In this document: piece by piece, positions 41,584 through 64,000 of the stretch | Layout: each line of letters opens with the position of its first letter | Numbering within the stretch: position 1 is the stretch's first letter | NCBI GenBank assembly: GCA_947175495.1 | Contig: CAMWNB010000006.1 | Coordinates: 10,304-74,303, forward strand | DNA: 64,000 nucleotides | Reading direction: 5' to 3' | Source: an uncultured Porphyromonadaceae bacterium | GTDB lineage: Bacteria; Bacteroidota; Bacteroidia; Bacteroidales; Muribaculaceae | Notes under the pieces: generated by a model | What the model was told of the DNA's origin: nothing | The model's database searches: none | Seen by the model: only the letters and a program-made list of their open reading frames with translations | Made by a program: the position numbers and the translations under genes

Positions 41584-41658
41584 TGGAGGTACCTAGCGGA
41601 ATCGAACCGCTGTACACGGTTTTGCAGACCGTTGCCTAACCACTCGGACCAAGGTACC
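41584..41658 (-). tRNA. tRNA-Cys(GCA)
   Basis: Acceptor GGTACCT/AGGTACC, anticodon arm ACGGT-CTGCAAA-ACCGT, T-arm AGCGG-TTCGATT-CCGCT, encoded CCA. Confidence 0.93.
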
Positions 41659-61971: not shown

Positions 61972-62237
61972 TGATAAAGTAACTTTTGTATCATCTATGG
62001 GGGTAAAAACGAAACGAGCACACTCTTTGTTGTATAACGCGTTGATGTGGTGATGTTTGGCGTTAAGTGACTGATTTGAAAAAGTTTAATTTGCTTGAAT
62101 TTCGGTTTAATTTCCGGGGTGTTTCGGTTGTATTTTAGTTGAATTTGGCTTTAATCAAGTTGAATTTTACTTTAATTTTAACGTCTGATTTAACGCTTGC
62201 TTACTCCCTAACACGTTGATTTAGTGGCGATATATAG

Positions 62238-62488: not shown

Positions 62489-62968
62489 TTAACAATTCAG
62501 ATTATTTAAGGCGGTTAGGATCTTCCGATATAATTCGGCATGACGTGGCGTGGCATTCTTATATTTTTCAAGTGCTTTAATCATTTGCTTTAATTCATCC
62601 ATAACGCCCGGCAATGTTGGAAGCGTTGAGAGTTTCGCGGACTCTTGATTAGTGAGGTTGAAGGTTGTTTTAAGTTCCTCTAAATTCCCTTTCTCAATAT
62701 AGAGCATTTGTCCGAGATTTTCTTTTGTCATGTACTTTTGTTCAAATCTTAATAAGGTTCTATAACACACCCCGAAAAGGTTTGCTAATTCAGATTTTGC
62801 AGTCGTACCCTTTTCAATGGCGTTAAGGTAATTTAATAGGGTTAAAGTTTTGGGATTATGTTGGCGCAATACCCTACACACATAACTAACCGAAACGTTA
62901 CAAATTTCGGCTACTTCTTTTGTGTTAAAGTGTTTAGACAATTCAATGATGCGCTCTTTGTTTGTCAT
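62489..62968 (-). CDS. Prophage protein with two HTH motifs
   Basis: TKEVAEICNVSVSYVCRVLR and KSELANLFGVCYRTLLRFE. Confidence 0.7.
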   Translation of the reverse strand: MTNKERIIELSKHFNTKEVAEICNVSVSYVCRVLRQHNPKTLTLLNYLNAIEKGTTAKSELANLFGVCYRTLLRFEQKYMTKENLGQMLYIEKGNLEELKTTFNLTNQESAKLSTLPTLPGVMDELKQMIKALEKYKNATPRHAELYRKILTALNNLNC

Positions 62969-63038
62969 TCAGCATTTTAGCGTTGTTATTATGATAGGTG
63001 CAGCGGCAATCGCCCAAAAGCGACTGCCGCTGTTAGAT

Positions 63039-63323
63039 TTATTTTTCCATTGTCAAGGAGATAAGCCCCGGATTTCCTGACTGATCGTCCATTTCGATAA
63101 TGGCTTCAATCAGATTTTGGAGCGTGGAAAGTGCATCGCCGAAAGTTCCAACACCTGCCCCGTCTGCAATAATGGCGTTTACTGAGTGAAAGTAAATGTC
63201 AAGGAGGTGGTTGCGAAGTTCCGAAACGGGTTGATCGCGCAAGAGGATACCGAGGATCTTGTCGAGATTGAGACCGCGTGAACATCCAACTGTCCACTCA
63301 GCCATTTCTACTTCATGGTTCAT
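63039..63323 (-). CDS. Small prophage protein (94 aa), target of the putative antisense switch
   Basis: Start codon lies inside the 25-bp repeat; helical, acidic; no recognised family. Confidence 0.65.
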   Translation of the reverse strand: MNHEVEMAEWTVGCSRGLNLDKILGILLRDQPVSELRNHLLDIYFHSVNAIIADGAGVGTFGDALSTLQNLIEAIIEMDDQSGNPGLISLTMEK

Positions 63324-63341
63324 AACTGTTAATTTTTAGGA
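63317..63341 (-). repeat. 25-bp direct repeat, copy B (start of the 94-aa gene)
   Basis: GGTTCATAACTGTTAATTTTTAGGA, identical to 63459-63483. Confidence 0.95.
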
Positions 63342-63349
63342 AGTTAAAT

Positions 63350-63430
63350 AAAAAAGCGACCCTTAGGTGTCCTACGCTATTAACAGTTAACAAGCGCCGG
63401 GGCGTTTCCGCGCTCCGCACCATAGGTCGC
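63350..63430 (-). ncRNA. Putative C4/CI-like cis-encoded antisense RNA (about 80 nt)
   Basis: Basal stem GCGACC..GGTG/CACC..GGTCGC plus U6; GCG-GAAA-CGC tetraloop hairpin; segment UAACUGUUAAU-AGCG-UAGGA complementary to both flanking repeats. Confidence 0.65.
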
Positions 63431-63458
63431 AAATATCTTTTAGGGAGATTGTTAAAGG

Positions 63459-63483
63459 GGTTCATAACTGTTAATTTTTAGGA
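63459..63483 (-). repeat. 25-bp direct repeat, copy A (5' leader and start of the 50-codon uORF)
   Basis: Identical to 63317-63341; immediately downstream of the minus-strand promoter. Confidence 0.95.
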
Positions 63484-63487
63484 TGCA

Positions 63488-63518
63488 CAAAGGTAAGCAA
63501 ATAATCTGACCCGGCAAA
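63488..63518 (-). promoter_or_regulatory. Leftward prophage promoter
   Basis: Minus strand TTTG-19 nt-TACCTTTG. Confidence 0.75.
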
Positions 63519-63587
63519 ATATCCGGGCGCAAAATTGCGATAATTGCAAATTTCGCGCAAAAATAGTGTAAATCTTTTACACTCTAT

Positions 63588-63619
63588 TTTGTGCAGGGGG
63601 GCGGTTGGTCGTACCTTTG
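63588..63619 (+). promoter_or_regulatory. Rightward prophage promoter for the head genes
   Basis: TTTG-20 nt-TACCTTTG. Confidence 0.75.
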
Positions 63620-63725: not shown

Positions 63726-64000
63726 ATGAGCAAAGAAAATGGAGATAACAAGCCTATAACCTTTGTGTTAAACGATGAGTCCGTTAATACTTACGGCTTT
63801 ATTGTATTGACCGAGGGTATAGATACAAGCGTATTTGAGCGCAACCCGGTAATGCTCTACATGCACAACCGGGACGGCAATGTTATAGGACGCTGGGAGA
63901 ATATCCGCAAGGAAGAAAAGCGGCTTTTAGCCGATGCCGTGTTAGATGATAGCACCGAGTTAGGGGCGCAAGTTAAAAAGCAAGTGGAGGGCGGTTTCCT
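63726..64000 (+). CDS. Phage prohead (HK97/caudovirus-type) protease, 3' end outside the window
   Basis: Hand translation: MSKENGDNKPITFVLNDESVNTYGFIVLTEGIDTSVFERNPVMLYMHNRDGNVIGRWENIRKEEKRLLADAVLDDSTELGAQVKKQVEGGF. Confidence 0.85.
   Translation, partial: MSKENGDNKPITFVLNDESVNTYGFIVLTEGIDTSVFERNPVMLYMHNRDGNVIGRWENIRKEEKRLLADAVLDDSTELGAQVKKQVEGGF

Follow-up and report, generated by a model that had tools for sequence, protein, structure and literature searches.

What kind of regulatory device is encoded where two identical 25-nucleotide (nt) repeats flank a small structured RNA, and the second repeat runs into the start of a gene? This question is raised by a locus near the end of the 64,000-nt stretch of DNA analysed here (the window), which belongs to contig CAMWNB010000006.1 of an uncultured Porphyromonadaceae bacterium (assembly GCA_947175495.1; Muribaculaceae in the GTDB lineage). 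On the minus strand of this locus, a promoter is followed by site 1 (the first repeat), a 31-nt leader, an RNA block ending in a U6 tract, site 2 (the second repeat), a gene for a 94-amino acid (aa) protein (gene 1) and a gene for a protein with a double helix-turn-helix (HTH) motif (gene 2); the coordinates are collected in Table 1. The 85-nt RNA block belongs to the Rfam family c4-2 (RF02944), clan CL00128, as a genuine member, and it is probably an antisense RNA that pairs with both sites and represses the downstream operon.

The covariance model of c4-2 matches the block with 59.6 bits (gathering score 41, E = 2.7e-12) and the match covers model positions 1-79 of 79. The consensus architecture is present, with a basal stem, an inner stem, a GNRA-capped hairpin, a variable-loop hairpin, an AGGA junction and a 3' U-run. 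The consensus alignment and an independent minimum free energy fold (-31.7 kcal/mol, z = -2.0) agree on this architecture, the only non-canonical pairs being the three outermost of the P1 basal stem, and the module is preserved as an independent fold when the entire leader is folded. When compared with the Rfam family, the RNA of the window shows no structural difference and is a full member. The Rfam models C4 (RF01695) and c4-a1b1 are not matched with E values up to 10, and at the position of the RNA only c4-2 is reported; the scan keeps the best match per clan at each position. Neither repeat is matched by any Rfam model, c4-a1b1 included, within the same limit. In the genome to which the window belongs (2.34 Mb) this copy is the sole c4-2 match. 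The c4-2 RNA was described by Weinberg et al. 2017 (PMC5737381), and in a literature search no experimental paper on it was found.

Each of the two repeats opens with the b box UCCUA and contains the a box, and the final A of the a2 box is the A of the start codon of gene 1. The a' loop of the c4-2 RNA is 100% complementary to site 1 and site 2 alike, and the b' junction segment complements the UCCUA box, which gives a pairing of 11 + 5 nt per site. The predicted duplex energy with the loop is -18.8 kcal/mol for site 1 and -17.2 kcal/mol for site 2. Site 2 overlaps the initiation region of the first open reading frame (ORF) of this locus, and the same is found in most homologous loci.

Much of this had been pointed out in a preliminary description of the locus, which proposed an antisense RNA like C4 of phage P1 or CI of P4, and this proposal is supported by the membership of c4-2 in the c4 clan. 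Its identical repeats A and B are recovered as an exact direct repeat, its structured block with a basal stem, a GAAA hairpin and a U6 tail by the fold, and its 11 + 5 bp pairing to both repeats, up to the A of the AUG, by exact complementarity. A 50-codon ORF that begins in repeat A and stops just inside the 94-aa gene is likewise confirmed. Co-variation of the antisense segment with the repeats, on which the proposal had been staked, is strong at both sites over 47 loci, and the motif, whose status had been left undecided, is already catalogued in Rfam as c4-2. The consensus promoter that had been placed on the minus strand is also present, being of the Bacteroidetes type and not of the sigma-70 type: the Bacteroidetes promoter pattern, taken from the established Bacteroides consensus, has 6 matches in the window vs 0.37 expected by chance, and a sigma-70 scan finds no promoter at 63488-63518. 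This minus-strand promoter (TTTG-N19-TACCTTTG) ends 4 nt before site 1, so that transcription probably begins at the b1 box or directly beside it. At the homologous loci a TAnnTTTG box is found at an equal distance from site 1.

The c4-2 RNA is found in 9 genomes of a sample of 401 from the same order, on 14 IMG/VR contigs and on 46 contigs of named genomes. Three of the order-level matches are the same contigs as named Bacteroidales records. After dropping duplicates and one chance match, the set consists of 47 distinct loci. The named carriers are mostly Bacteroidales (Muribaculaceae, Prevotella, Bacteroides, Alistipes, Tidjanibacter, Dysgonomonas and Azobacteroides), together with Flavobacteriales, Chitinophagaceae and one metagenome-assembled genome (MAG) of the Elusimicrobiaceae; a blastn search of the module against 50,697 GenBank phage records gives no match. 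Cultivable carriers are the Muribaculaceae isolate A17, Prevotella sp. MGM1, Prevotella koreensis KCOM 3155, Phocaeicola oris 14-104 and Dysgonomonas sp. 511. The layout is common to all 47 loci, the loop varies from locus to locus and both flanking sites vary with the loop. When the loop of each locus is paired with its own sites, the duplex energy is -16.0 kcal/mol at site 1 and -15.6 kcal/mol at site 2, as compared with -10.6 and -9.2 kcal/mol for non-cognate combinations, and the longest Watson-Crick run is 7.9 nt at site 1 and 8.0 nt at site 2, as compared with 4.1 nt at either site for non-cognate combinations. None of 10,000 locus permutations reaches the observed Watson-Crick run, neither at site 1 nor at site 2.

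The same picture is obtained from the alignment of 24 sequences, in which 95.2% (site 1) and 96.1% (site 2) of the cells are paired, whereas these values fall to 33-39% and 36-48%, respectively, when the partner is slid by 1-3 columns. The covariation score is 0.505 at site 1 (0.147 when shuffled) and 0.478 at site 2 (0.134 when shuffled), and 0 of 500 shuffles reach the observed score at either site. All eight a-helix pairs tested have double-sided changes, at site 1 and at site 2, and G-U pairs are present among the loop-site variants. One locus (L018) differs from that of the window by a single A/U swap in the a box (site AUUAACUGUUA, loop UAACAGUUAU), which is compensated at all three places. 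Even the usually fixed b box co-varies, as UGCUUA/UAGCA in L019, as CUCU/AGAG in L010 and L064 and as GUCUA/UAGAC in L060.

It could be argued that the repeats act at the DNA level, as operators or recombination sites recognised by the HTH protein or another protein, and that the RNA complementarity is incidental, given that a double-HTH protein is encoded in the operon and that the repeats adjoin promoters. Such DNA sites, however, would have no need for a third copy, inverted and located within a structured RNA, whose sequence follows the changes of the other two. The G-U variants fit RNA duplexes, being A-C mismatches on the other strand, and the b box complements the conserved junction of the Rfam model. 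This explanation is therefore considered extremely improbable.

The loop could also form alternative pseudoknots within its own transcript, with either site as the partner, in a purely cis-acting leader switch that involves neither a trans-acting RNA nor immunity. The three elements lie within 170 nt of one transcript, such that cis pairing is kinetically favoured, and it is the antisense reading that has to postulate a free small RNA. A cis switch, on the other hand, has no need to diversify its loop, whereas 38 distinct a1 helices are found among the 47 loci. Such hypervariable addresses, with two of them in one genome, form the pattern expected for discrimination in trans between co-resident elements. 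Moreover, c4-2 belongs to a clan of trans-acting c4 RNAs, and a switch acting in cis only is quite unlikely.

The role of site 1 is best considered together with the upstream ORF (uORF), which starts at the site-1 AUG and passes through the entire c4-2 RNA. Its TGA lies 8 nt past the A of the AUG of gene 1, and the two reading frames differ. The frame from the site-1 AUG is open across the whole RNA in 41 of 46 loci. Exactly one stop-free frame is present in the RNAs of 38 of 45 loci, and 42 of 45 loci have their site-1 AUG in a stop-free frame, when 16.7 are expected for a random frame. All three frames are used, differing by subfamily, and the offset of the AUG tracks the frame: offsets of -31 and -28 go with frame 2, -30 with frame 0, and -29 and -20 with frame 1. 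At least seven leader configurations are found among the loci with an open leader frame. To our knowledge, no conserved ORF through a structured antisense RNA has been described in the c4 clan.

A conserved peptide is rejected as the explanation of the uORF, as both the sequences and the frames differ between subfamilies and the peptides are unrelated between frames; blastp matches between the uORFs are a reflection of the conservation of the RNA. Nor does the uORF stop follow a rule that would mark it as a termination-reinitiation device, the distance from the stop to the AUG varying widely and many uORFs extending beyond 60 nt. An open frame that is kept in differing frames, when the peptide is not kept, suggests that the selected trait is the passage of ribosomes across the c4-2 RNA, and on the sequence evidence this conserved open leader frame points to a putative translation-coupled, P4-like switch.

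The uORF and site 1 have a different meaning if the locus works in the manner of P1 only, with excision of the RNA by RNase P, masking of gene 1 at site 2 and polarity on the HTH gene. Site 1 and the ORF would then be by-products of a duplication, kept by gene conversion. The layout indeed equals the a1/b1-c4-a2/b2 order of P1 (PMC8198154), and the 25 nt over which the repeats are identical include the first two codons of the gene, which is what a recent duplication or conversion would produce. The excess of open-frame AUGs, in three frames and at least seven configurations, is unexpected of a passive relic, however, and the co-variation with the loop is as tight at site 1 as it is at site 2, two loci even retaining site 1 alone. 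RNase P substrates such as c4 have a CCA-type 3' end, whereas the c4-2 RNA ends in a U-tract. A mechanism of the P1 type only is thus unlikely, though somewhat less so than a switch in cis.

The preferred mechanism, in which the c4-2 RNA acts as an antisense RNA at both sites, can be outlined as follows. The strong Bacteroidetes promoter would make a single transcript spanning from site 1 to the HTH gene, and the c4-2 RNA would be released by termination at the U-tract and/or by processing. At both sites, its a' loop would pair with the a box and its b' junction with the b box, by 11 + 5 bp. Pairing at site 2 would hide the initiation region of the 94-aa gene, which is plausible because translation initiation in Bacteroidetes depends on an unstructured upstream region. 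Pairing at site 1 would keep ribosomes from the leader ORF, the RNA of the untranslated leader would fold, and transcription would end at the P1 stem with its U6 tract or by Rho. The downstream genes would stay off while more c4-2 RNA accumulates, which would be an OFF state specific to the loop address. In a cell without a matching c4-2 RNA, translation of the leader would unfold the RNA and the terminator, and the downstream genes would be expressed. General antisense repression by c4-2 is held with good confidence, whereas the translation-coupled attenuation is a tentative part of this scheme, with the balance slightly against it.

This scheme can be compared with two known systems. The P1/P7 c4 system is the immI operon c4-icd-ant (Rfam C4, RF01695; Citron and Schuster 1990 as cited in PMC8198154), and in P1 the c4 RNA blocks the expression of icd and ant, according to PMC8198154. 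As in P1/P7, a small structured RNA comes from the same transcript as its target, its a' and b' segments complement one upstream and one downstream site, the downstream site extends over the region where translation of the first small ORF is initiated, and the specificity resides in a variable segment. Unlike P1/P7, the locus of the window is in another host phylum and has another promoter type, its RNA matches the c4-2 model and not C4 and has a U-tract as its 3' end, the controlled genes are not icd or ant, the first of them being a hypervariable slot, and a conserved ORF runs through the RNA. We know of no ORF through the c4 RNA of P1.

In P4, base pairing of the CI RNA with seqA and seqC brings about premature termination (PMC4825925). 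In the locus of the window, too, one transcript contains an antisense RNA with a complementary site on either side, and its carrier, like P4, is a small capsid-related parasite and not a full phage; this likeness to P4 CI is one of layout. The two also differ, as P4 relies on Rho for termination at timm, whereas the RNA of the window is followed by a U-tract, and as P4 carries an integrase and a primase, whereas the element of the window carries neither. Work on P4 by Forti and colleagues in 1999 reportedly found that premature termination is counteracted when the region is translated, and the leader ORF conserved at the locus of the window would fit this logic. Like the module of the window, the c4-2 family occurs in mobile and phage DNA.

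Several points weigh against the antisense switch. We infer the release, the ends and the processing of the c4-2 RNA and its action in trans, as well as its biological role (immunity, lysogeny control or control of a toxic gene); immunity is named by analogy only, because the 94-aa and HTH proteins have no assigned function. The P1 stem closes a multi-branch structure, which is not a textbook intrinsic terminator, and a simple terminator scan does not call the P1 stem with its U6 tract. The mouse-gut metatranscriptome contigs of relatives place the region in RNA libraries but cover the conserved c4-2 core only, and DNA carry-over is possible for them. The two c4-2 copies of one genome (G267; L006 and L012) have the upstream site only, a copy of the site not being found at the start of the downstream gene, and site 2 is therefore not universal in the family. 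Finally, the loci are phylogenetically related, which inflates the shuffle statistics. This last concern is reduced by the control with the slid partner, by the large number of independent specificities and by the finding that three frames are used.

Table 1. Features of the c4-2 locus and of its carrier element, in window coordinates unless stated otherwise
Feature	Position	Strand	Basis or remark
Minus-strand promoter, Bacteroidetes type (-33 TTTG, 19-nt spacer, -7 TACCTTTG)	63488-63518	minus	pattern search
Site 1 (repeat A)	63459-63483	minus	exact 25-nt direct repeat
b1 box UCCUA	63479-63483	minus	opens site 1, followed by spacer AAA
a1 box AUUAACAGUUA	63465-63475	minus	in site 1
Site-1 AUG, start of uORF	63463-63465	minus	in site 1
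uORF, 50 codons (MNPFNNLPKR...INSYEP)	63313-63465	minus	ORF list
c4-2 RNA, 85 nt	63350-63434	minus	Rfam RF02944 match and fold
P1 basal stem GCGACC/GGUCGC	63425-63430 / 63356-63361	minus	fold
GAAA tetraloop, capping a hairpin	63405-63408	minus	fold
a' antisense loop UAACUGUUAAU, on second hairpin	63379-63389	minus	fold and complementarity
b' junction segment UAGGA	63370-63374	minus	complementarity to UCCUA
U6 tail of c4-2 RNA	63350-63355	minus	sequence
Site 2 (repeat B)	63317-63341	minus	exact 25-nt direct repeat
b2 box UCCUA	63337-63341	minus	opens site 2
a2 box AUUAACAGUUA	63323-63333	minus	in site 2
Gene 1, 94 aa, predicted to be directly controlled	63039-63323	minus	ORF list
Gene 2, 159 aa, double HTH and helical tail	62489-62968	minus	same operon, downstream
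Inverted repeat, 14 nt, AAAAATAGTGTAAA / TTTACACTCTATTT	63559-63572 / 63576-63589		inter-promoter spacer; repeat search
Divergent promoter, Bacteroidetes type, of protease/scaffold-capsid operon	63588-63619	plus	pattern search
Prohead protease/scaffold gene, 374 aa, runs off the window	63726-64000	plus	Peptidase_S78, PHROG
Virion-morphogenesis (Phage_tail_S) gene, 163 aa	L002 5993-6484 (~65993-66484, outside window)		family match
Left terminal inverted repeat TATGGGGGTAAAAACGAAACGAGCAC	61996-62021	plus	sharp start of homology with eight relatives
Second left-end box AAAACGAAACG	~62323		box search
Right terminal inverted repeat, imperfect inverted copy TATAATCGCCAAAACGAAACGAGCAC	ends ~66709 (outside window)		end of homology

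Concerning the genes that would be controlled, the 94-aa protein matches no Pfam, PHROG or NCBIfam family and has only 10 close homologues, none of them named. Its predicted model is a four-helix structure with an AlphaFold predicted local distance difference test (pLDDT) score of 66.8, for which Foldseek finds no fold match in the PDB. When the gene-1 slot after site 2 is compared between loci (L013-L074), it is found to hold at least six unrelated small-protein families; in one homologous locus only, L052, it encodes a KilA-N protein (6e-11), a kind of domain found in phage antirepressor-type proteins. The combination of a hypervariable gene-1 slot and a conserved next gene resembles a cargo or moron slot.

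Gene 2 is kept in 20 relatives in the alignment, with a length of about 140-180 aa. Its HTH_23 and HTH_28 matches are near the threshold, and its matches to PHROG regulators are weak. The predicted model has a pLDDT score of 86.5, the structural matches being generic HTH folds with E values of about 1, and no sequence relative is found in the PDB. Possible roles of the protein are regulation of the divergent capsid promoter, binding to the ends of the element and a function like that of a small terminase. No match to the Ant, Icd, Bro or KilA families is found for gene 1 or gene 2 of the window locus. Between the two genes, at 63001-63032, there is a 13-bp hairpin (92% complementary, 6-nt loop) without a U-tract, which may serve in processing, contribute to stability or act as a weak terminator.

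Directly 5' of the c4-2 RNA, at 63438-63456, a third b-like box (CUCCCUAAAAGAU) is seen, which resembles the sequence preceding repeat B and is kept in the 24-sequence alignment. It could be a processing signal or an additional b' partner. The only other above-threshold Rfam match in the window is a tRNA gene at 41587-41658 on the minus strand. In the spacer between the two divergent promoters, the 14-nt inverted repeat abuts the upstream edge of the capsid-operon promoter, with a 2-nt overlap, and may be an operator. A similar TGTAAA...TTTACA palindrome is present at the corresponding place of the Tidjanibacter locus (L005).

Two further observations concern the homologous loci. The two copies of G267 are located on one contig, 380 kb apart, and have different loop addresses, UGUAUGUAUGUA and AAAUAAUAGUA. 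In L029, L032, L033 and L059, an identical c4-2 module (site 1, RNA and site 2) is found on contigs of 2.1-2.4 kb, which are filed in MAGs labelled Saccharibacteria, Alphaproteobacteria and Christensenella, two of them in one Christensenella MAG. Most likely, these contigs represent a mis-binned high-copy mobile element of mouse-gut Bacteroidales.

The DNA that carries the module had been called a Bacteroidales prophage in the preliminary description, but a complete temperate prophage is rejected on the gene content between two inverted-repeat ends. The carrier is instead a 4.7-kb element, which extends from 61996 to ~66709 of the window numbering (L002 1996-6709) and is bounded by imperfect 26-nt inverted repeats. 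Two AAAACGAARCG boxes are present at each end of the element, and these four are the only ones in the 2.34-Mb genome. Eight relatives of the element are found, each with different flanks, and a 4-nt duplication is seen at the element of the window (CATC) and at L035 (GATC), not being clear in L040 or L045. The element contains the HTH gene, the 94-aa gene, c4-2 and the divergent capsid operon, in which the protease/scaffold gene is followed, outside the window, by genes for the major capsid protein (292 aa), a 57-aa protein and a 163-aa virion-morphogenesis protein, as assigned by matches to Peptidase_S78, phrog_11321, phrog_267 and Phage_tail_S. No integrase, transposase, terminase, portal or tail gene is found inside the element, and the lysis genes of a complete prophage are likewise not among its contents. 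The 163-aa gene represents an additional insert: precisely L002 5939 to 6478 is left out of the homology with L035, L040 and L056, and the complete copies in L035, L040 and L045 are about 4.2 kb long, without this gene.

Cellular genes, for a UDP-glucose dehydrogenase and a transglutaminase-like protein, flank the element of the window. In Tidjanibacter the cassette is located between UvrC and cellular genes, and in Muribaculaceae A17 it adjoins the phage replication genes ParB, SNF2 helicase and VRR-NUC. When a helper phage is sought in the genome of the window, no further AAAACGAARCG box and no further c4-2 is found.

It is possible, although rather doubtful, that c4-2 controls commitment and immunity in a mini-Mu-like satellite with capsid genes, and that it does so as a bistable attenuator coupled to translation, in which the entry of ribosomes gives the ON state and RNA of the same address the OFF state. 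If so, the hypervariable loop would be a barcode that lets many satellites coexist, and the gene-1 slot could hold helper-interference or anti-defence cargo. The carrier, with its Mu-like ends, its 4.7 kb and its capsid gene, is a more unusual object than the c4-2 RNA itself.

So far, c4-2 has been known from bioinformatics only, and no target of it has been defined by experiment. What is added here beyond the catalogue is a model of the c4-2 targets, together with a leader frame that is conserved as open and the location of the module in a mini-element that carries capsid genes. The locus of the window and the 46 related ones make this target model testable, with two sites, 11 + 5 bp of pairing and dozens of natural specificities, including single-base swaps. 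The many addresses are orthogonal and could also be a natural source of parts from which orthogonal RNA regulators for Bacteroides are built. The Bacteroidales are a dominant group of the gut, in which translation is initiated without strong Shine-Dalgarno pairing. If translation of the leader ORF is part of the switch, this would make RNA-based phage immunity testable in these bacteria.

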